A DNA stretch of 19,969 nucleotides from a virus (taxonomy: Duplodnaviria > Heunggongvirae > Uroviricota > Caudoviricetes), in IMG/VR virus record IMGVR_UViG_2675903289_000008; one strand, 5' to 3'. Numbering within the stretch: position 1 is the first letter of the stretch; each line of letters begins with the position of its first letter. Made by a program: the position numbers and the translations under genes. The notes beneath the pieces were generated by a model. That model ran no database searches, had not been told where the DNA came from, and worked only from the letters and a program-made list of their open reading frames with translations. Positions 4,627 through 19,969 of this stretch are shown here, in pieces.

Positions 4627-5941
4627 TTTAGGTTATGCCGCCACGCTTCCCTCAAAAGAGACGGTGGCATACTTCCGCGCCAAAGGGGCGCATATCAGCT
4701 GGAACTGGTTCGAAACAGACGCGGATGTTCATGCCCGCTCATTCACGGCAGCAAAAACGGCACGGCTGGATGTGGTAACCACATTACAGGCCGAAGTGCA
4801 GCGGGCCATTGATGAGGGGATTTCACAGAAAGAATTTATCCGCACACTGACGCCACGCCTGCAAAAGCTGGGATGGTGGGGAAAGCAGATTGTGGTGGAC
4901 AGCGACGGTAACGCGGAAGAAGTGCAGCTGGGCAGTCCCCGTCGTCTGGCGCTGATTTACAACGTGAACACCCGTGTGGCTTACAATGCCGGGCGTTACA
5001 CGCAGATGATGAACAACACGGACACGCATCCGTTCTGGCAGTATGTGGCGGTCATGGACAGCCGTACCCGCCCGTCGCATTCCGCCCTTAACGGTCTGGT
5101 ATTCCGCTATGACGATCCGTTCTGGAAAACACACTACCCACCTAATGGCTGGAACTGCCGCTGCCGTGTGCGGCCATTGTCTCAGGCTCGTCTGGATGCA
5201 ATGGGGTTATCCGTTTCATCCGGTGAGGATCATCTCTCCACCCGCAATGTTGAGGCTGGCGTGGATAAACAGACCGGAGAAGTCAGAGAAATGCCGGTGA
5301 CCACATATTCAGATGGCACCAGAACCATGACACCGGATGTGGGCTGGTCATATAACCCCGGCTCGGCAGCGTTCGGCACAGACCAGGCGCTGATCCGCAA
5401 ACTGATCGAGGTGAAAAGCCCGGCGTTACGGGAAATGGTGGTTCAGGAGATGAACAACAGCCCGGAGCGGCAGCTGGCGTTCCGCATCTGGGCAAAAAAC
5501 ATCATGCAGACCCGGCGAGGTGGTAACGATATCCGCACGCTGGGCTTTATGACTGAAAGCATTGCGCAGGCAGTGGAAAGCCGGACGGGAACGCCACCGG
5601 CCCGCCTGCTGGCGATGAGCGGTAAAAATGTGCTCCATGCAGACAGTGTGAAACATCAGAATGACGGCATCGCCCTGATGCCAGAGGACTTCGGGCGCTT
5701 ACCGGCAATGCTGGCAAAGCCAAAAGCGGTGCTGTGGGACAAACGGCACAAAAATCTGATGTATATCGTGGAAAATAAGGATGGCAGTGTGCAGATTGCC
5801 GTTAATGCACCGTACAGTCTGAAACGTCAGCCCGACAAACTGGATGTGATTGTGAATGCTTACCGGGTTATCAATATGGATAAGCTGAAATCGGATATCC
5901 GGGGCGGAATGCTTGAGGTGCTGGAAGGACAAATTGATTAA
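4610..5941 (+). CDS. MuF-like head morphogenesis protein (Mu gp30/F, SPP1 gp7 family)
   Basis: 443-aa ORF with the MuF-type motif region (DSRTRPSHSALNGLVFRYDDPFW...PPNGWNCRCRVRP); follows the portal as in Mu. Confidence 0.85.
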   Translation: MAQGIDLGYAATLPSKETVAYFRAKGAHISWNWFETDADVHARSFTAAKTARLDVVTTLQAEVQRAIDEGISQKEFIRTLTPRLQKLGWWGKQIVVDSDGNAEEVQLGSPRRLALIYNVNTRVAYNAGRYTQMMNNTDTHPFWQYVAVMDSRTRPSHSALNGLVFRYDDPFWKTHYPPNGWNCRCRVRPLSQARLDAMGLSVSSGEDHLSTRNVEAGVDKQTGEVREMPVTTYSDGTRTMTPDVGWSYNPGSAAFGTDQALIRKLIEVKSPALREMVVQEMNNSPERQLAFRIWAKNIMQTRRGGNDIRTLGFMTESIAQAVESRTGTPPARLLAMSGKNVLHADSVKHQNDGIALMPEDFGRLPAMLAKPKAVLWDKRHKNLMYIVENKDGSVQIAVNAPYSLKRQPDKLDVIVNAYRVINMDKLKSDIRGGMLEVLEGQID

Positions 5942-6026
5942 CGGTCAGTGGCGGGGGTCGAACCCGCATACATGATCCACCCGGAGGCAGGCACCGACTT
6001 TACCAGTTAAGCGTACACTGACCGCC
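5942..6026 (-). other. tRNA-like structured element or tRNA remnant (minus strand); also a 9-bp inverted repeat on the + strand
   Basis: Minus strand reads GTCAGTG-TA-...CTGG...-GCGGG-TTCGACC-CCCGC-CACTGAC: 7-bp acceptor-like pairing, U8A9-like TA, D-loop GG, canonical T-arm. No anticodon stem could be folded and there is no CCA. Confidence 0.3.
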
Positions 6027-6062
6027 TGTTTATTTTATATTCATCCTTTATGCGGAGGCAAT

Positions 6063-6542
6063 ATGTCATCCATTGATGCCGCTGTCGTTGTTGACGTTAC
6101 GCGTCTCCAGCGGGTGTTTGCCCGGCTTCAGTTTGTGGGCGGCGGAAAAGACCTGGCCCGCAGTGTGGCGGAGAGTCTNNNNNNNNNNNNNNNNTCAGAA
6201 ATGGCGTTTGAACAGGAAAAAGAGCCGGACGGCGAACGCTGGCATGACTGGTCAGATCCTTACCGCAAGTGGCGTACCCGTAAGGGATACACGCCCGGCA
6301 AAATCCTGACACTGAACGGCGATCTGGCCCGCCGCCTGACCACGGATTATGGCGATACCTGGGCGCTGATTGGATCAAATGAACCTTATGCGGCCATTCA
6401 TCAGTGGGGTGGCCTGCCTGGTATGCCACCGGGACCGGCGGCCATTGGCGCACGTCCGTATATGGGCTTTGATCAGGTGGCAGAACAGGAGATCATGGAC
6501 GAAATCAGAAAACGCTTTAAAAAGGCCACAGAAACGCCGTAA
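6063..6542 (+). CDS. virion morphogenesis protein (Mu G-like)
   Basis: 159-aa ORF with GGAGG Shine-Dalgarno ahead of ATG 6063; sits between MuF and protease/scaffold as in Mu; reads in frame across the 16-nt N-run 6179-6194. Confidence 0.7.
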   Translation: MSSIDAAVVVDVTRLQRVFARLQFVGGGKDLARSVAESXXXXXXSEMAFEQEKEPDGERWHDWSDPYRKWRTRKGYTPGKILTLNGDLARRLTTDYGDTWALIGSNEPYAAIHQWGGLPGMPPGPAAIGARPYMGFDQVAEQEIMDEIRKRFKKATETP

Positions 6543-6719
6543 TGGTTTAAGGTATGCAAACGTATTACCTTACCCCCTTCAGGCGCGTGTCGTGATTTTC
6601 TAACCTGTATTTAACGGGCTTTAAAATCTGCGTGAAGCGCCTTTCTCATTTTTCCCCTGTCAGCACTTTCTGAAGTCCCGCAAAACCGGCCCCGAAAAAC
6701 ACCGGCTTATGCTGCCGGA
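6543..6719. promoter_or_regulatory. long G-I intergenic region: candidate strong gyrase site and/or late promoter
   Basis: 177 nt non-coding gap in an otherwise overlapping operon; TAAAAT -10-like hexamer at 6622-6627; hairpin CCGGC-N7-GCCGG (6702-6718) abuts the I start codon. Positional equivalent of the Mu G-I interval. Confidence 0.35.
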
Positions 6720-7922
6720 ATGAAGACGAAAAACACGCCCAAACTTGCTTATGCCATTCTGAATGCCATCAGCCTGTCCGCAGACGGGGACGGTGACTGG
6801 TGTCAGATCATGCCAGCCGGTCGGGTAAAGGCCCGTGACGGTCGCCCGGAAAAACCGGCGGAAGGCTGGCTGATTAACCATGCGGCCGTTGAGCGCATGG
6901 TATCCCGGGTTGTGGCGCTCAATCAGCCGGTAAAAATTGACTACAACCACCAGACCCTGATTAAGGGGCATCCGGCACCGGCTGCCGGTTTTGTCATGGC
7001 CTCACCGGAAAACTTCCGCTTCAGTGAAGAGCGGGGTTTTGAAGTGCGTCCGGACTGGAACCCTCCGGCCATTGAACACCTGCGCAATAACGAATTTCCC
7101 TGGTTTTCCCCGGTGATTGGTTATGACGAAATCACCGGTGAACCTGTTGAGCTTCGGATGCTGGCTATTACCGGTGACCCCGGTCTGACTGGCATGAATC
7201 CTGTCGCCGCACTGTCGGCGGATGACCTTTATAACGCCTTAAACCCTCCTTTAAAGGACACCTCCATGAATGAGCAATTACGCCAGTTGCTGACGGCGCT
7301 CGGTCTGACCGTGGCCGACGGTGACGAATTTACACCGGAACTGGGCACGGCGGCGCTGTCTGCCCTTACCGGGATCAAAACCCGTGCGGATGCGCACGAC
7401 ACCCTGAAAACGCAGGTTGCCAGCCTGTCGGCAGAGCTGGAAACCGCAAAAGGCACACCAACTGGCGGCACTATTGATCTGACGAAATACGTGCCCGTTG
7501 AGACGTATAACGNNNNNNNNNNNNNNNNNNNNNNNNNNNNNNNNNNNNNNNNNNNNNNNNNNNNNNNNNNNNNNNNNNNNNNNNNNNNNNNNNNNNNNNN
7601 NNNNNNNNNNNNNNNNNNNNNNNNNNNNNNNNNNNNNNNNNNNNNNNNNNNNNNNNNNNNNNNNNNNNNNNNNNNNNNNNNNNNNNNNNNNNNNNNNNNN
7701 NNNNNNNNNNNNNNNNNNNNNNNNNNNNNNNNNNNNNNNNNNNNNNNNNNNNNNNNNNNNNNNNNNNNNNNNNNNNNNNNNNNNNNNNNNNNNNNNNNNN
7801 NNNNNNNNNNNNNNNNNNNNNNNNNNNNNNNNNNNNNNNNGTCGGCTGAAGATATCGCCGCCGCCCATCTGCTGGGTAAAACCGAAGCCGAGTTCCTGAA
7901 AATGAAAGAGGAAATGCAATAA
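6720..7922 (+). CDS. head maturation protease/scaffold (Mu I-like)
   Basis: 400-aa ORF directly upstream of the major head gene (TAATG overlap); N-terminal protease-like region, A/L/T-rich helical C-terminal half; contains N-run 7513-7840. Confidence 0.8.
   Translation: MKTKNTPKLAYAILNAISLSADGDGDWCQIMPAGRVKARDGRPEKPAEGWLINHAAVERMVSRVVALNQPVKIDYNHQTLIKGHPAPAAGFVMASPENFRFSEERGFEVRPDWNPPAIEHLRNNEFPWFSPVIGYDEITGEPVELRMLAITGDPGLTGMNPVAALSADDLYNALNPPLKDTSMNEQLRQLLTALGLTVADGDEFTPELGTAALSALTGIKTRADAHDTLKTQVASLSAELETAKGTPTGGTIDLTKYVPVETYNXXXXXXXXXXXXXXXXXXXXXXXXXXXXXXXXXXXXXXXXXXXXXXXXXXXXXXXXXXXXXXXXXXXXXXXXXXXXXXXXXXXXXXXXXXXXXXXXXXXXXXXXXXXXXXSAEDIAAAHLLGKTEAEFLKMKEEMQ
7266..7922 (+). CDS. candidate nested scaffold protein (Mu Z-like) from an in-frame internal start
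   Basis: In-frame ATG at 7266 preceded by AAGGA; downstream sequence (MNEQLRQLLTALGL...) is helical and scaffold-like; Mu makes Z from inside I in the same frame. Confidence 0.35.
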   Translation: MNEQLRQLLTALGLTVADGDEFTPELGTAALSALTGIKTRADAHDTLKTQVASLSAELETAKGTPTGGTIDLTKYVPVETYNXXXXXXXXXXXXXXXXXXXXXXXXXXXXXXXXXXXXXXXXXXXXXXXXXXXXXXXXXXXXXXXXXXXXXXXXXXXXXXXXXXXXXXXXXXXXXXXXXXXXXXXXXXXXXXSAEDIAAAHLLGKTEAEFLKMKEEMQ

Positions 7923-10245: not shown

Positions 10246-10683
10246 ATGACAACCATTTTTATCAAACCCNNNNNNNNNNNNNNNNNNNNNNNNNNNNNNN
10301 NNNNNNNNNNNNNNNNNNNNNNNNNNNNNNNNNNNNNNNNNNNNNNNNNNNNNNNNNNNNNNNNNNNNNNNNNNNNNNNNNNNNNNNNNNNNNNNNNNNN
10401 NNNNNNNNNNNNNNNNNNNNNNNNNNNNNNNNNNNNNNNNNNNNNNNNNNNNNNNNNNNNNNNNNNNNNNNNNNNNNNNNNNNNNNNNNNNNNNNNNNNN
10501 NNNNNNNNNNNNNNNNNNNNNNNNNNNNNNNNNNNNNNNNNNNNNNNNNNNNNNNNNNNNNNNNNNNNNNNNNNNNNNNNNNNNNNNNNNNNNNNNNNNN
10601 NNNNNNNNNNNNNNNNNNNNNNNNNNNNNNNNNNNNNNNNNNNNNNNNNNNNNNNNNNNNNNNNNNNNNNNNNNNNNNNNNNA
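10246..10683 (+). CDS. unresolved: start of an ORF running into an N-run (small Mu gp38-like protein and/or sheath N-terminus)
   Basis: ATG 10246 with GAGGA Shine-Dalgarno, 8 codons visible (MTTIFIKP) before the N-run 10270-10682. Confidence 0.3.
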
Positions 10684-13080: not shown

Positions 13081-15353
13081 ATGGCAAAAAACCTGAAAGC
13101 CTCCCTGATTGTCGATTTACTCGGCAATATTTCCGCCAAATCCCGCCAGTGGTCACAGGAGCTGGGGGCATTCTCCCGTTCCGGCAGGACGGGGCTGGGT
13201 GGTCTTGGAAATGCAGCACGCCGGGCCGGTCAGGAAACAGAGCTTGTTGGCTCCCGTATGCAGCGAACGCTTGCCGGTGTTCGTGGCAGTATCCGCACGG
13301 TAACGTCAGATTTTGACCGCCTGCAGGGCAGCATTACCGGCACCATCGGGCGGATAAGCAACNNNNNCCTTTACGGGATGCTGGCGGGAGGGGCTGCGGT
13401 CTACGGTTTTAATAAAGCCTTTATCCGCCCGGCCGCAGAGATGGAGAACTATATTCTGCGTCTCAACGCCANNNNNNNNNNNNNNNNNNNNNNNNNNNNN
13501 NNNNNNNNNNNNNNNNNNNNNNNNNNNNNNNNNNNNNNNNNNNNNNNNNNNNNNNNNNNNNNNNNNNNNNNNNNNNNNNNNNNNNNNNNNNNNNNNNNNN
13601 NNNNNNNNNNNNNNNNNNNNNNNNNNNNNNNNNNNNNNNNNNNNNNNNNNNNNNNNNNNNNNNNNNNNNNNNNNNNNNNNNNNNNNNNNNNNNNNNNNNN
13701 NNNNNNNNNNNNNNNNNNNNNNNNNNNNNNNNNNNNNNNNNNNNNNNNNNNNNNNNNNNNNNNNNNNNNNNNNNNNNNNNNNNNNNNNNNNNNNNNNNNN
13801 NNNNNNNNNNNNNNNNNNNNNNNNNNNNNNNNNNNNNNNNNNNNNNNNNNNNNNNNNNNNNNNNNNNNNNNNNNNNNNNNNNNNNNNNNNNNNNNNNNNN
13901 NNNNNNNNNNNNNNNNNNNNNNNNNNNNNNNNNNNNNNNNNNNNNNNNNNNNNNNNNNNNNNNNNNNNNNNNNNNNNNNNNNNNNNNNNNNNNNNNNNNN
14001 NNNNNNNNNNNNNNNNNNNNNNNNNNNNNNNNNNNNNNNNNNNNNNNNNNNNNNNNNNNNNNNNNNNNNNNNNNNNNNNNNNNNNNNNNNNNNNNNNNNN
14101 NNNNNNNNNNNNNNNNNNNNNNNNNNNNNNNNNNNNNNNNNNNNNNNNNNNNNNNNNNNNNNNNNNNNNNNNNNNNNNNNNNNNNNNNNNNNNNNNNNNN
14201 NNNNNNNNNNNNNNNTGGCCACACAGACGGCCTCAGCACTGAATCAGGGATTTGAGTATGCCAGAGATGCTGCGACCGGCTTTTACCGGGCCATTCAGAA
14301 AGTCAGGGAAACGCTTCAGGCACTGCGCGACGCCGGTTATGGCGATGCGCTGGATCGTATTGGTCAGGGTGCGCAGACCGCCGCAAAGTACCTGATGTAT
14401 ATGTATCTCGCCTCCCGTGCGCTGAAGGTGCTCAGGTTTGCAGGGACGGGGGCATTACGTCTCGGCGCAACCCCCTTACGCTATGGCATGGCGATGACCT
14501 CCGTGCTGACGTCGCCCTTCCGCAAACCGCAGACCACTGTACCGGGAACGCAGCCCGGACGCGCTGGCCGGTTCCTGAATTTCCTTACCGGGGTAAATCC
14601 GGCTGCCGTTCAGCCCGTGCTGGTCACCAACTGGCCTGCGGGTGGCCTGGCCTCAGGTGGCGGGGATGTGGTGGTCAGCGGTGACGGCAAAACCGTGCGC
14701 GGCCGTAAAAAACGCGGCCCCGGACGTGGACGGGGTGTCACGACCGTCGTGACTGCCGGTGAGCAACTGGCGGAGAGTGCCGGTAAACAGGGCTTCTTCG
14801 GTCGTATGATGAGCCGTGCCGGTGGTCTGCTAACGGCGGCCGGAAACCGCATGGGGCTGGGGCGTTTTGCCGGGCTGTTCCGTGGTGCCGGTCGGCTGGG
14901 TGGTGGTGCCCTGTGGGCCGGTGCCATGGCGGCTCCTGTACTGCTGGACAGCAGCGCCAGTGCAGCCGATAAAGCCGGTGCCGTGGGTTCTCTTGCCGGA
15001 AGTATCGCCGGTGNNNNNNNNNNNNNNNNNNNNNNNNNNNNNNNNNNNNNNNNNNNNNNNNNNNNNNNNNNNNNNNNGCGCGGGGGGCGGCTGCCGGTCC
15101 GGTCGGGGTTGCCATTGGTTCCACGGTGGGCAGCTATCTCGGTGATTATCTGGGGGGCTGGCTGACGCAGGCCTGGCAGAAACTGCGTGGCAGCAGTGAC
15201 GAAAACGGCGGACAGGCCACCGCGAAAACCGCCGCACGGGTGGAGCTTGTGGCCCCTGAAGGCTGGCGGGCGCGCAGTATTGATGTGGATGATACCGCAC
15301 AGCATGGCCTGGATGTGAACGTCTGGAACGGAGGGAACTATGGCCTCTACTGA
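13081..15353 (+). CDS. tail tape measure protein; frame discontinuity inside N-run 15014-15077
   Basis: Long Gly/Ala-rich ORF after the chaperones. After the mask the protein-like continuation (ARGAAAGPVGVAIGSTVGSYLGDYLGGWLTQAW...) is in frame 0 and ends at 15353, overlapping the next start; the ORF track's frame-1 end at 15165 is an artefact. Confidence 0.75.
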
Positions 15354-16584
15354 CACGCCGGGGCGTGGCTCCTTTCGTGGCGTACCGTTCCTGGTTTATC
15401 AGGAGCAGCGGGAACGGGGCGGACGTAACATTGTGCGCCGTGAATACCCACTGCGTGAAAGCGGCGGTGCGGATGATCTGGGGCCAAAACTCCCGGAGTT
15501 CACATTCACGGTTCTAGTGACCGGAGACGATCTTCAGACACAGCGAAGCCGCCTGCGTGATGCGCTGCGTGCACCCGGTGCCGGTGAACTGATGCACCCG
15601 GATTACGGCACGTTAAACGTGCTGATAAACAGCTTTGAAAGCCGTTATAACGCCAGCGAGCAGGGAACGGTTGAGTTCACGATCAACGTGATCCCCGCCA
15701 GTGACGATACCGCCCCTTCGGTGGCAGAAGATACGGCAGCTGCGCTGGAGCAGAAAAGCGGCTCAGCAATGAATCAGCTGTTTAACACACTTTCAGACGG
15801 CTGGACGGTGATTTCAGACGGTCTGCATGATGTACAGGCCATGACCGACACCATCAGCGATAAAATTGATGCGCTGGAGAATGCCGTTTCAGGGATGGGG
15901 ATTGTGCAGGATATCAGTGCCTTTACGGCCAGTTTTACTGCCCTGAAAGGGAATGCCGCCGCCCTGATTAATGCGCCCCGTCGCATGGCTGAATCGCTGG
16001 CCGGAATGTTTGCCGTGCTGGCGGGGCTGCCCGGCGATCCTTCCCTGTCGCTGACCGGAAAAGCCGGAACGCCGTCCGGCAGCCTGACCACAAACCGTGA
16101 CAGCACGACAGAGCAGGCCATGCCGCAGCTGTACCGCACACTTTCTTCCCTGCGTTACACCCTCAGCGAACAGGATGATCCGCAGCGCCTGATTGGTCTG
16201 ACGCCTGCGGCACAGAACAATATCCGTCTGCTGCGGAGCGTCATGCAGAGTGCAGCCCTGGTGTCGCAGGCGCAGACGGTCGGAAAACTGCTGGATCAGG
16301 TCATCCGGCAGAATACGACGCACGTTCAGGATACTGACCGTGCGGGCGGACTGGCCTGGCTGGAAAGTTCTGCTGATGTGCAGCGTATCAACCGGGATTT
16401 GAGCGATGCCATGGAACAACAGGTGCTGGATCTGTCCGCACAGGGCCATACCGGCACCGCCCTTGCATTACGTGATGCAGGGCTTGCGCTGACAGAAGAT
16501 TTAACCACGCGGAGCGTGCATCTTCCCGGTGCTTTTCAGGTCATGGTGCGAACCACCGAACCGGCACTGGTCACGCTGTACCGT
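15340..16584 (+). CDS. DNA circularization protein (Mu N/gp43-like); 3' end hidden in N-run
   Basis: GGAGGG Shine-Dalgarno and ATG 15340; about 415 visible codons in the position and style of Mu N; the gene most likely ends inside the mask 16585-16881. Confidence 0.65.
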
Positions 16585-16881
16585 NNNNNNNNNNNNNNNN
16601 NNNNNNNNNNNNNNNNNNNNNNNNNNNNNNNNNNNNNNNNNNNNNNNNNNNNNNNNNNNNNNNNNNNNNNNNNNNNNNNNNNNNNNNNNNNNNNNNNNNN
16701 NNNNNNNNNNNNNNNNNNNNNNNNNNNNNNNNNNNNNNNNNNNNNNNNNNNNNNNNNNNNNNNNNNNNNNNNNNNNNNNNNNNNNNNNNNNNNNNNNNNN
16801 NNNNNNNNNNNNNNNNNNNNNNNNNNNNNNNNNNNNNNNNNNNNNNNNNNNNNNNNNNNNNNNNNNNNNNNNNNNNNNNNN

Positions 16882-17836
16882 GGTCATCAGTGGCTGGCTG
16901 GATCAGGTCAGTCNNNNNNNNNNNNNNNNNNNNNNNNNNNNNNNNNNNNNNNNNNNNNNNNNNNNNNNNNNNNNNNNNNNNNNNNNNNNNNNNNNNNNNN
17001 NNNNNNNNNNNNNNNNNNNNNNNNNNNNNNNNNNNNNNNNNNNNNNNNNNNNNNNNNNNNNNNNNNNNNNNNNNNNNNNNNNNNNNNNNNNNNNNNNNNN
17101 NNNNNNNNNNNNNNNNNNNNNNNNNNNNNNNNNNNNNNNNNNNNNNNNNNNNNNNNNNNNNNNNNNNNNNNNNNNNNNNNNNNNNNNNNNNNGCTGACCC
17201 GTGCTGCCCGGCATCGCGGGGTGCTGGTGACCAGTAATGCTGACGGCGATCTGGTGTTCACCCAGGCAGGAAGCCAGCAGACGGACAGACTGGTGCTGGG
17301 AGATAACCTGCTTGATGCCGATTACAACACGGACTGGCGAGGACGATACAGCGAATACCGTGTCCGGGGACACGGGCGCGGTGGTGGCAAACGGGGAGAC
17401 AGCGAATCCGCCGCCCGTCTGGCAGCACCTGTGGGCGTCATCAGTGATGAGCAGATCGGCCGCTACCGGCCGAAAATCATCCTCGCCGATCAACAGACAG
17501 ACATCACCGGTGCACGGCAGCGTGCCCTGCGTGAAATGCGCCGTGCGATTGCCCGTTCAGAACGGTTTTCTGCCACCGTGCGTGGCTGGTTCCGGGATGA
17601 TGGCCGGTTATGGGATGTCAATCTGCTGACCGGTGTTTCAGCCCTGCGTTTCGGTATAGAACAGACTGAACTGCTGGTCTGTCAGGTGGAGTTTTTACTT
17701 GATGAGNNNNNNNNNNNNCTTGATGAGCATAACGGGGAAGTCACCCGGCTGGTACTGGCACCGCGTGACGGCTTTATCGTTCCGGCAGAGCCGGACAGTA
17801 AGGGCCGGGGTGGTTCCGGTGACGATGTTGATGCCT
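16882..17836 (+). CDS. baseplate hub protein (Mu P/gp44-like, P2 gpD-like); both ends masked
   Basis: Visible segment 17193-17836 resembles the C-terminal part of late-control-D-type tail proteins; contains a 21-nt in-frame direct repeat around N-run 17707-17718. Confidence 0.55.
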
Positions 17837-18231
17837 NNNNNNNNNNNNNNNNNNNNNNNNNNNNNNNNNNNNNNNNNNNNNNNNNNNNNNNNNNNNNNNN
17901 NNNNNNNNNNNNNNNNNNNNNNNNNNNNNNNNNNNNNNNNNNNNNNNNNNNNNNNNNNNNNNNNNNNNNNNNNNNNNNNNNNNNNNNNNNNNNNNNNNNN
18001 NNNNNNNNNNNNNNNNNNNNNNNNNNNNNNNNNNNNNNNNNNNNNNNNNNNNNNNNNNNNNNNNNNNNNNNNNNNNNNNNNNNNNNNNNNNNNNNNNNNN
18101 NNNNNNNNNNNNNNNNNNNNNNNNNNNNNNNNNNNNNNNNNNNNNNNNNNNNNNNNNNNNNNNNNNNNNNNNNNNNNNNNNNNNNNNNNNNNNNNNNNNN
18201 NNNNNNNNNNNNNNNNNNNNNNNNNNNNNNN

Positions 18232-18556
18232 CACAGCCGGAGATACGGGGGTGTATCACCATGAGGGGCACCGGATACGGTTAACAAAGGATGGCCGCAT
18301 TATTGTGACATGCAAAATGCTGGAGATTTACGCCGACGAGGGGATGCGGGTGGATACGCCGGAAGCCACCTTTACGGGCAATGTGACGGTGGATAAGAAC
18401 CTGCATGTTAAGGGTAATTTCGCGCTTGAGGGTACGGGGAAATCTCAGGGACTGTTCACAATGTCGGATGCCGTTATTGCAGGGATACGGTATTCCGGCC
18501 ATGTGCATCATGATAACGGCGAAGGCAGTAAGACAGGAGTGCCGGAGAATGGCTGA
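18232..18556 (+). CDS. baseplate central spike protein (Mu gp45-like, P2 gpV-like); 5' part masked
   Basis: 108 visible C-terminal codons in the frame ending at 18556; the stop overlaps the next gene start (ATGGCTGA). Confidence 0.55.
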
Positions 18557-18986: not shown

Positions 18987-19969
18987 TGCCTTATCAGCCT
19001 TTACCGCTGGCACAGTTAATCACGCAGACACAGCAGGATATCAGCCAGCGCCTGCCCGGCTCGCAGCCGGGTGTGAATGAAACCACCCTGAATGCCATTG
19101 CTTACGCTCAGGCAGGGTTATCTGCTCAGGAGCATGAGCATCTGGCCTGGATTGCGCGTCAGATCATCCCGACCGAAGCCGATGAAGCCGAACTGCTGAA
19201 ACACTGTGCATTCTGGGGCGTCATGCGTAAGCCTGCCTCTCGGGGGGACGGGCCGGTTCAGCTGATGCTGACCACGGATGCGGGGATCAAGGAAGGTGTG
19301 CTTCTCCAGCGAAGTGATGGCGTGGTTTACCGTATCACCACCTCCCTGACCGGTAAGGCCGGTACGCTGAATGTCAGTGTGGAAGCCGAAAGTGCCGGTC
19401 GTGCGGGGAATGCCCCGGCAGGGACAAAACTGACATTTATCACACCGCAGGCGGGGATCAACCAGACGGCCACGGTGACCGGAACGGGGATCACCGGTGG
19501 TGCGGATGTGGAAACCGTGCCGGAGCTGCTTTCCCGTCTGGTTTTCCGGGTGCAGAATCCACCGTCCGGCGGCACGCAGTATGATTTTGAACGCTGGGCG
19601 CGTGAAGTGCCGGGCGTGACGCGGGCATGGTGCCGCCCGGAATGGCCGCAGGCGGGCAGCGTGGGGGTAACGTTTGTTCAGGATAATAACCCGGACATTT
19701 TCCCCGGTGACGGTGATGTTCAGCGGGTGGCGGATTATNNNNNNNNNNNNNNNNNNNNNNNNNNNNNNNNNNNNNNNNNNNNNNNNNNNNNNNNNNNNNN
19801 NNNNNNNNNNNNNNNNNNNNNNNNNNNNNNNNNNNNNNNNNNNNNNNNNNNNNNNNNNNNNNNNNNNNNNNNNNNNNNNNNNNNNNNNNNNNNNNNNNNN
19901 NNNNNNNNNNNNNNNNNNNNNNNNNNNNNNNNNNNNNNNNNNNNNNNNNNNNTCTGGTTCTGCCGTCGT
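18986..19969 (+). CDS. baseplate J-like protein (Mu gp47-like; P2 gpJ / T4 gp6-like), 3'-partial
   Basis: ATG 18986 overlaps the preceding stop (TAATG) after AAGGGGGAG; frame open to the window end, so absent from the ORF track; sequence (…YDFERWAREVPGVTRAW…) fits baseplate J proteins. Confidence 0.8.
   Translation, partial: MPYQPLPLAQLITQTQQDISQRLPGSQPGVNETTLNAIAYAQAGLSAQEHEHLAWIARQIIPTEADEAELLKHCAFWGVMRKPASRGDGPVQLMLTTDAGIKEGVLLQRSDGVVYRITTSLTGKAGTLNVSVEAESAGRAGNAPAGTKLTFITPQAGINQTATVTGTGITGGADVETVPELLSRLVFRVQNPPSGGTQYDFERWAREVPGVTRAWCRPEWPQAGSVGVTFVQDNNPDIFPGDGDVQRVADYXXXXXXXXXXXXXXXXXXXXXXXXXXXXXXXXXXXXXXXXXXXXXXXXXXXXXXXXXXXXXXXXXXXXXXXXWFCRR

Follow-up and report, generated by a model that had tools for sequence, protein, structure and literature searches.

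The G-I interval of an Sp18-type Mu-like prophage probably pairs a strong gyrase site with a late promoter

Introduction

What occupies the 177 nt between the late genes G and I in a Mu-like prophage of the Sp18 type from Escherichia coli? We addressed this question in a single window, by which we mean the whole stretch of DNA analyzed (19,969 nucleotides; IMG/VR record IMGVR_UViG_2675903289_000008). A first-pass annotation of this window had likened the interval to the region between G and I of phage Mu, which holds the strong gyrase site (SGS), and had also placed a late promoter there. In Mu, the central gyrase site brings the prophage ends together. An SGS of this type carries, along its right arm, an extended series of phased anisotropic bending signals. 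The corresponding site of prophage Sp18 is reportedly cleaved by gyrase both in vitro and in vivo, with a 4-bp stagger.

Many gyrase sites were tried at the Mu center by Pato, and a review states that only the SGS of the Mu-like prophage from strain Sakai (Oram & Pato 2004, J Bacteriol 186:4575) promoted Mu replication (PMC10052514). The binding site of the Mu late activator, C, has been described as a 16-bp imperfect dyad centered at -43.5 in promoters without a -35 element (PMC2582627), with the consensus TTAT-N5-6-ATAA (PMC12867686). Here, we compare the window with Mu, with phage D108, with Sp18, and with more distant relatives to determine which parts of its G-I interval correspond to these two elements.

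Materials and Methods

Scans for I homologues returned 54 loci from viral contigs and 3 from genome contigs. The 55 loci compared include Mu, D108-like phages, Sp18-like prophages, and distant relatives from Edwardsiella, Apirhabdus, and Avibacterium. The G-I gaps of 20 representatives were aligned with MAFFT. The four Mu late promoters were reconstructed from the oligonucleotides given in PMC4461284, which end 20 nt past the mapped start. Position relative to the genome center was read from complete relatives, as the prophage ends lie outside the window.

Gyrase motifs were scored with a rebuilt approximation of the Sutormin 2019 matrix (PMC6379681), a symmetric ridge model trained on 498 published cleavage sites and their published scores within 250 kb of E. 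coli W3110. As a check of the register, G was found at position 0 in 75% of the published sites and C at +3 in 79%. Against held-out published scores, the rebuilt matrix gave an r of 0.89 (8-fold cross-validation) with an rmse of 1.3, on a compressed scale (10.2 for the Mu SGS fragment, vs the published 14.3). Among 36,588 Mu positions, it scored the SGS highest; with the original matrix, the SGS likewise leads in Mu, and in E. coli it takes third place (PMC6379681). The 133-bp Mu SGS fragment and the 133-bp printed consensus (Sutormin et al. 2019 supplement) were placed in a common register, which puts the Mu stagger at AATC, 17876-17879. Two other ways of scoring were dropped: use of the published 133-bp consensus as an exact match or W/S template, with which the Mu SGS did not rank near the top in Mu, and unconstrained or strand-aware regression on 231-498 site scores, which was unstable (cross-validated r 0.66-0.87).

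Results

The window carries the late region of an Sp18-type prophage

The window contains the late region of an Sp18-type Mu-like E. coli prophage. Its genes lie on the plus strand in the Mu order, with a large terminase-like ORF followed by the Mu portal (PF06074), F (PF04233), G, I, the T homologue (Pfam match to PF10124), and downstream head-tail genes. The N-terminus of the I product, MKTKNTPKLAYAILNA, aligns with that of Mu I, which makes the ATG at 6720 secure as the I start. Gene I would be the first gene under the predicted late promoter described below. The features discussed here are collected in Table 1.

The nearest relative found, at 98.5% identity over the DNA of the G-I region, was the prophage that sits in a fimbrial usher gene of E. 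coli FORC_069. The same region is ~94% identical to prophages of O157:H7 strains, including the Sakai copy annotated as "prophage Sp18, Mu-like phage." Against Mu DNA, only G could be aligned, at ~70%. Among 5,426 complete genomes of E. coli, 228 contain the Sp18-type element.

Twelve masked runs, totaling 2,786 N, interrupt the window (among them 6179-6194, 7513-7840, 10270-10682, 13472-14215, 16585-16881, 17837-18231, and 19739-19952). Gene G contains the 16-nt run at 6179-6194 and gene I the 328-nt run at 7513-7840, and the interval between them is free of masked bases. In the tail region, the ORF at 15340-18264 (974 aa) is an artefact in which the N and P homologues are fused across N-runs, and some of the intergenic gaps there are possible artefacts of the same kind.

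Table 1. Coordinates of the genes and predicted elements at the G-I interval of the window
Feature	Position	Strand	Basis or remark
Gene G (virion morphogenesis/neck protein)	6063-6542	+	Pfam PF05069 Phage_tail_S, E 5e-30
Predicted 130-bp gyrase footprint, Sp18-type strong gyrase site	6495-6624		Motif positions -63 to +66
Imperfect inverted repeat, center base 6560	6535-6585		Core AAGGTA-11 nt-TACCTT
Predicted 4-bp cleavage stagger, AGGTATGC^AAAC^GTATTACC	6558-6561		16 nt past G stop
Right-arm phased A/T blocks GATTTTCTAACC, TATTTAACGG, CTTTAAAATC	6594-6628		CTTTAAAATC holds TAAAAT, 6622-6627
Pyrimidine-rich spacer CCTTTCTCATTTTTCCCCT	6640-6658	+	Between gyrase site and promoter
Candidate box for late activator (C homologue), CTGAAGTCCCGCAAA	6670-6684	+	MAFFT alignment with Mu PI box
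Stem-loop CCGGC-TTATGCT-GCCGG	6702-6718	+	Adjoins I start codon; -10 hexamer in loop
Predicted -10 hexamer TATGCT of late promoter PI	6708-6713	+	Aligns with Mu PI -10 CAAACT
Gene I (head protease/scaffold)	6720-7922	+	Pfam PF10123 Mu-like_Pro, E 3e-47

A long G-I gap is shared across the Mu-like family

The first-pass annotation had described the G-I interval as 177 nt of non-coding DNA among genes that nearly all overlap. The 177-nt gap is real and is the longest in the window, though it has company: F and G, which overlap in Mu, are 121 nt apart here (5942-6062). That second gap holds a tRNA-like gene on the minus strand (5943-6022), opposite to the late operon, which matches Rfam RF00005 over its full length at 31 bits (gathering score 29) and whose anticodon-arm region is oversized. 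Just upstream of this gene stands a sigma-70-like promoter, TTGCCT-18-TAAAAT (6061->6032). ARAGORN called no tRNA on the window; PGAP lists the gene as "tRNA-OTHER" in FORC_069, and it is unannotated in Sakai Sp18.

Across the family, the G-I gap measured at least 174 nt in all 55 Mu-like phage and prophage loci; Sp18-group gaps span 174-177 nt, those of the Mu group span 196-209 nt, and the remaining gaps reach up to 676 nt. A long gap at this place is thus a family trait, beyond chance. The 676-nt example belongs to an Edwardsiella anguillarum prophage (L005/L033); it retains a gyrase-motif peak 13 nt past the G stop, as well as a short hairpin and the -10 layout before I, and its additional ~480 nt lie between these two. 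In the Sp18-type element records that we inspected, the G-I interval carries no annotation beyond the flanking genes, and no plus-strand terminator was predicted in the gap of the window.

The MAFFT alignment resolved two conserved zones within the gap. The first opens with a short AT..A(T/A) core 13-18 nt past the G stop, after which come three or four TTTT(A/G)AA(A/C)(C/G)G units spaced by ~21 and 11 nt. The second zone is the promoter. The Mu gap follows the same order, with the gyrase site on the left and the promoter on the right, since the Mu record has the end of G at 17859 and a gyrase cut site annotated at 17879/17880, and PI lies in the I-proximal third of the gap before the I start at 18056.

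The left part of the interval matches the Mu and Sp18 strong gyrase sites

The footprint at 6495-6624 was the best in-gap motif match whether the rebuilt matrix was applied in its PFM or in its regression version. Its best position, 6558, scored 7.0, and the adjacent 6559 (3.3) was the only other position above 3 in the left gap. By this approximate matrix, the score at 6558 belongs to the highest 0.17% over 250 kb of E. coli sequence and ranks 111th of 15,751 scorable window positions, and the equivalent Sp18 site, at 6.5, ranks 209th of 38,630 in its prophage. These are moderate scores, and sequence scoring alone would not single out the window site.

Comparison across lineages adds the evidence of position. 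The homologous place, 13-18 nt past the G stop, gives the best in-gap match for almost all unique gaps. Outside the Sp18 group, the site is usually among the top ten of its ~7-kb locus, and in most of the more divergent lineages it ranks first or second. Motif totals for 15 representatives ran from 6.1 to 13.1. Left arm, core, and right arm each scored above zero in these, apart from the cores of two loci (L039 and L044), which fell marginally below it. The Sp18 group has the lowest totals of the family (6.1-7.5, vs 9.7-13.1) because the first right-arm A/T block is missing; the right-arm partial score of the window has a z of 2.0.

The predicted stagger of the window aligns with the Mu stagger, though it may lie one base over, at 6559-6562. 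Around it sits the inverted repeat, whose 20-nt arms were 75% complementary in a repeat search. At a center of 6560.0, 17 of 30 mirrored pairs are complementary, compared with 5-12 at neighboring centers, matching the two-fold symmetry of a gyrase site. To the right, the phased A/T blocks form the best-conserved segment of the gap between Mu and the window. Anchored at the predicted center, the family shows A/T blocks at +15-24, +37-45, +49-55, and +60-66; the window lacks the first, and its other three occupy about +37-45, +49-55, and +60-66, places at which the published consensus for gyrase has A/T. Fourier analysis of right-arm periodicity gave p 0.09 for the window and p 0.004-0.39 over the sequences tested, values that are individually weak and that we did not use as main evidence. 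A T/C-rich stretch is found at the position of the spacer in all aligned lineages, and this spacer may extend the right arm distally.

The left arm of the predicted site would be supplied by G itself, as the last ~48 nt of that gene (6495-6542) double as footprint. The left-arm partial motif score within G was positive in 15 of 15 lineage representatives (z 1.6-4.1), and this segment includes a conserved ATCA(A/G)AAAACGC. The last G codons thus appear to serve two purposes, coding and gyrase left arm.

The first-pass annotation had proposed alignment with the Mu and D108 gyrase sites, and the left part of the gap, together with the end of G, did prove homologous to the Mu SGS. Both sites lie 16-17 nt past the G stop near the genome center, each is a local maximum of the gyrase motif, and their right arms share the block GATTTTyTAACCnGTATTTAACGG. 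Identity over the Mu footprint is ~57%. The sites differ in the first A/T block, where Mu has ATTTTTTAAAA at +15 to +24 and the window has CTTACCCCCTTCAGG instead, and in score on the rebuilt scale (9.7 for Mu, 7.0 for the window). The D108 site scores 9.0, and 5 of 196 positions separate D108 from Mu. The suggested location at the center of the genome was also borne out, with the predicted site at 47.2% of Sp18 (10972-49730 of L003) and 47.3% of the FORC_069 prophage, as compared with 48.7% in Mu.

The closest comparison is with Sp18, where the site likewise sits in the G-I gap (176 nt, vs 177 nt in the window). The two footprints are identical at 126 of 130 positions (96.9%) and have the predicted cleavage position and right-arm blocks in common. 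Two of the four substitutions fall in or next to the cleavage core, where the window reads AAACGT and Sp18 AAATGC. Over the promoter-proximal 60 nt, identity drops to 83%, a pattern that would be expected if the left part were under the stronger constraint. The replacement of the Mu SGS is reported for the Sp18 site (PMC10052514), of which the window copy is a 96.9% identical relative.

A candidate activator-dependent promoter lies next to gene I

All four late promoters in Mu carry a box, ccATAAcCCC, with its ATAA beginning 28 nt before a -10 located at about -13 to -8; Mu PI reads gcATAACCCCAGAT...CAAACT. In the 20-gap alignment, the Mu box (cATAACCCC) is matched in the window by cGCAAAACC, within the candidate activator box. 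As in Mu PI, the box ends 23 nt before the -10 hexamer and its 4-base core (GCAA) begins 28 nt before it. If transcription started at 6720, the box would span -50 to -36, with its center near the -43.5 of Mu, a geometry like that described for C sites. Both promoters stand upstream of I with a recognizable -10 and without a -35; in the window, no -35 match was found for TATGCT, and the sequence 17 nt upstream of it is ACCGGC (6685-6690).

The two promoters also differ. The core is GCAA in the window and ATAA in Mu, and the literal Mu C consensus, TTAT-N5-6-ATAA, is absent at the window promoter, where the 15-nt box stands instead. The ~25-nt leader of Mu is absent as well, leaving the -10 only 6 nt from the I AUG. 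Judged by its sequence, the predicted window promoter is a variant rather than a literal member of the C-dependent Mu late promoters. The late promoter most likely lies at 6670-6713.

Further support for this placement comes from other copies of the same arrangement. Between the C homologue and lys, Sp18 has CTGATATTCCGCAAAGCC...TACGCT, and in its G-I gap it has CTGAAATCCCGCAAAACC...TATGCT, with the same distance of 23 nt from CGCAAA to the hexamer. The lys -10 and the bases downstream of it are homologous to Mu Plys (TAGACTGCCATCAGAGAA in Mu, TACGCTGACTCAGAGAA in Sp18). A third Sp18 copy, CTGAATTAACGCAAA-22 nt-TATGAT (L003 45364-45406), lies between the invertase gene (gin) and ECs_4993; no match to it was found in FORC_069. 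This third copy precedes the gene for a 679-aa DUF6645 protein, at the position where Mu has Pmom. The composite pattern of box, spacing, and hexamer occurs on the plus strand only, before lys and I, plus after gin in Sp18. It is carried by Sp18, FORC_069, a Stx-phage-borne relative, all Sp18-group viral contigs, and L029/L030, and it had zero matches in 250 kb of E. coli K-12 W3110 and zero in Mu. A PP-type promoter was sought in the N gene, and none was found.

The putative activator would be encoded by a C homologue or Mor-family gene that lies directly upstream of lys in Sp18 and FORC_069, outside the window. The Sp18 product, ECs_4961, shares 39% identity with Mu C and 27% with Mor, and it has a different recognition-helix sequence. 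The changed box core would fit an activator only 39% identical to Mu C. In the Sp18-group annotations that we inspected (L003 20441-21445; L067 13548-14550), a single Mor/C-family gene precedes lys, where Mu has both mor and C; if true, this would imply a shorter regulatory cascade than in Mu. An ungapped comparison with Mu had offered CAAAAC (6681-6686) as a promoter element, a candidate that we dropped in favor of TATGCT on the strength of the multi-lineage alignment and the Sp18 lys promoter.

A hairpin abuts the I start codon

The -10 hexamer of the window lies in the loop of a short hairpin, for which RNA folding gave -9.6 kcal/mol (z -2.8). A hairpin abutting the start codon was present in 10 of 10 folded lineage representatives (z-scores -1.7 to -4.3), with equivalent positions seen in L029, L030, L033, L034, L039, L052, L058, and Mu. 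The stems themselves vary, comprising CCGGC/GCCGG, GACCG/CGGTC, TCCCCC/GGGGGA, ATGGTCCG/CGGACCAT, ATGGCCT/AGGCCAT, and CTGCTCA/TGAGCAG, and RNAalifold on the group with the short layout returned 5 pairs, 2 of them with compensatory changes.

In this short layout, TATGCT is followed in the Sp18 group by GCCGGA and then by the I ATG, so that a canonical start 7 nt past the hexamer is the A of the AUG. L029/L030 and Edwardsiella share the layout, with TACGAT, TAAGCT, and GACAAT 6-7 nt before the ATG. A start at or next to the AUG, as predicted from this spacing, would be unusual. The equivalent Mu hairpin has the published PI start within its 5' arm and could therefore form only in read-through transcripts. 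The layout suggests promoter-dependent translation of I. More specifically, transcripts from PI would be leaderless, while mRNA reading through from lys would fold the hairpin over the start, making translation of I depend on the promoter; we put this forward tentatively and regard it as doubtful. Under the leaderless reading, the short -10/hairpin layout would have arisen independently in the L029/L030 and Edwardsiella lineages.

Alternative readings of the interval

Three other accounts of the interval deserve weighing, of which the first concerns the placement of the promoter. The first-pass annotation was right in outline to expect a late promoter homologous to Mu PI in the gap, but its placement is not supported: it had named TAAAAT (6622-6627) as the -10, with which the leader of I would measure about 90 nt. 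As a -10 hexamer, TAAAAT is good, it is invariant in the Sp18 group, and L029 and L030 have GAAAAT at its position. In the alignment, however, it pairs not with Mu PI but with "TATGAAT" in the right arm of the Mu SGS, as the fourth phased A/T block, and it falls on an A/T position of the gyrase consensus. No activator-type box stands 28 nt upstream of it, several lineages lack it (L052, L058, and L034), and a simple sigma-70 scan of the plus strand of the gap reported no promoter-like site, TAAAAT included. We consider its use as the -10 quite improbable, and the late promoter is better placed next to I, at the activator box and TATGCT.

It is also unlikely that the gyrase site has decayed in this lineage, so that the left gap is a relic or spacer and the interval serves only as promoter and leader. 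The low Sp18-group scores (6.1-7.5, vs 9.7-13.1), the missing first A/T block, and the rank of 111th in the window would be consistent with such decay. Against it, the motif peak is still found exactly at the homologous position, the Sp18-group footprint is better conserved than the promoter part (96.9% vs 83%), and the Sp18 site is reported to substitute functionally for the Mu SGS (PMC10052514). As for an unannotated small gene or small RNA hidden in the gap, we give this almost no credence. The D108 record does carry a 42-aa hypothetical protein, "31.5," annotated over the gyrase site (L068 515-643; record 17914-18042), and two mechanically listed ORFs overlap the gap of the window, at 6370-6603 (+) and 6660-6971 (-). 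Both of these run into G or I in other frames, though, and the mechanical list has no ORF contained wholly in 6543-6719. The D108 ORF is probably spurious, because Mu, with 5 of 196 bases different there, has no such annotation. Rfam families matched nothing over 5800-6900 save the tRNA-like element in the F-G gap, and conservation among lineages in the 20-gap alignment takes the form of short phased blocks and promoter elements, with no reading frame. A gyrase site followed by a late promoter is the reading that we carry forward.

Discussion

Taken together, the comparisons make it likely that the G-I interval is a two-part cis region, SGS plus late promoter PI, derived from a common Mu-like ancestor. 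The gyrase-site reading is well supported by homology to the Mu SGS, by the motif peak, by the 96.9% identity to the experimentally tested Sp18 site, and by the central position. We infer gyrase cleavage in this phage, contact between the activator and its box, and the transcription start.

The first part, at about 6495-6630, would be an Sp18-type strong gyrase site made of the last ~48 nt of G and the gap's left two-thirds. Binding of a gyrase tetramer there would center cleavage at about 6558-6561, and the A/T blocks at 6594-6628, perhaps continuing to ~6658, would wrap on the GyrA C-terminal domain. From this position in the middle of a prophage of ~39 kb, processive supercoiling could extrude a plectonemic loop, which would join the two prophage ends for transpososome assembly after induction, a role established in Mu. 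At 6670-6720, the second part would be PI, a late promoter that depends on an activator. The C homologue of the phage is predicted to bind the box as a dimer and to help sigma-70 RNA polymerase open the -10, producing a transcript that would cover I, T, and the downstream head genes.

The biology involved is already known, including a 97%-identical copy of the site, and nothing here is new in principle. We make two modest additions. The gyrase-motif peak stays 13-18 nt past the G stop across lineages that share little sequence, and the late promoter of the Sp18 group appears to have a different activator box and to have lost its leader. Recognition of the site also aids annotation of the Sp18-type element. 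As the SGS is a favored substrate in work on gyrase mechanism, Sp18-type sites supply natural variants of a functional SGS. For the prophage itself, a central gyrase site of this kind would let a transposable element of 37-39 kb find its own two ends in the chromosome.
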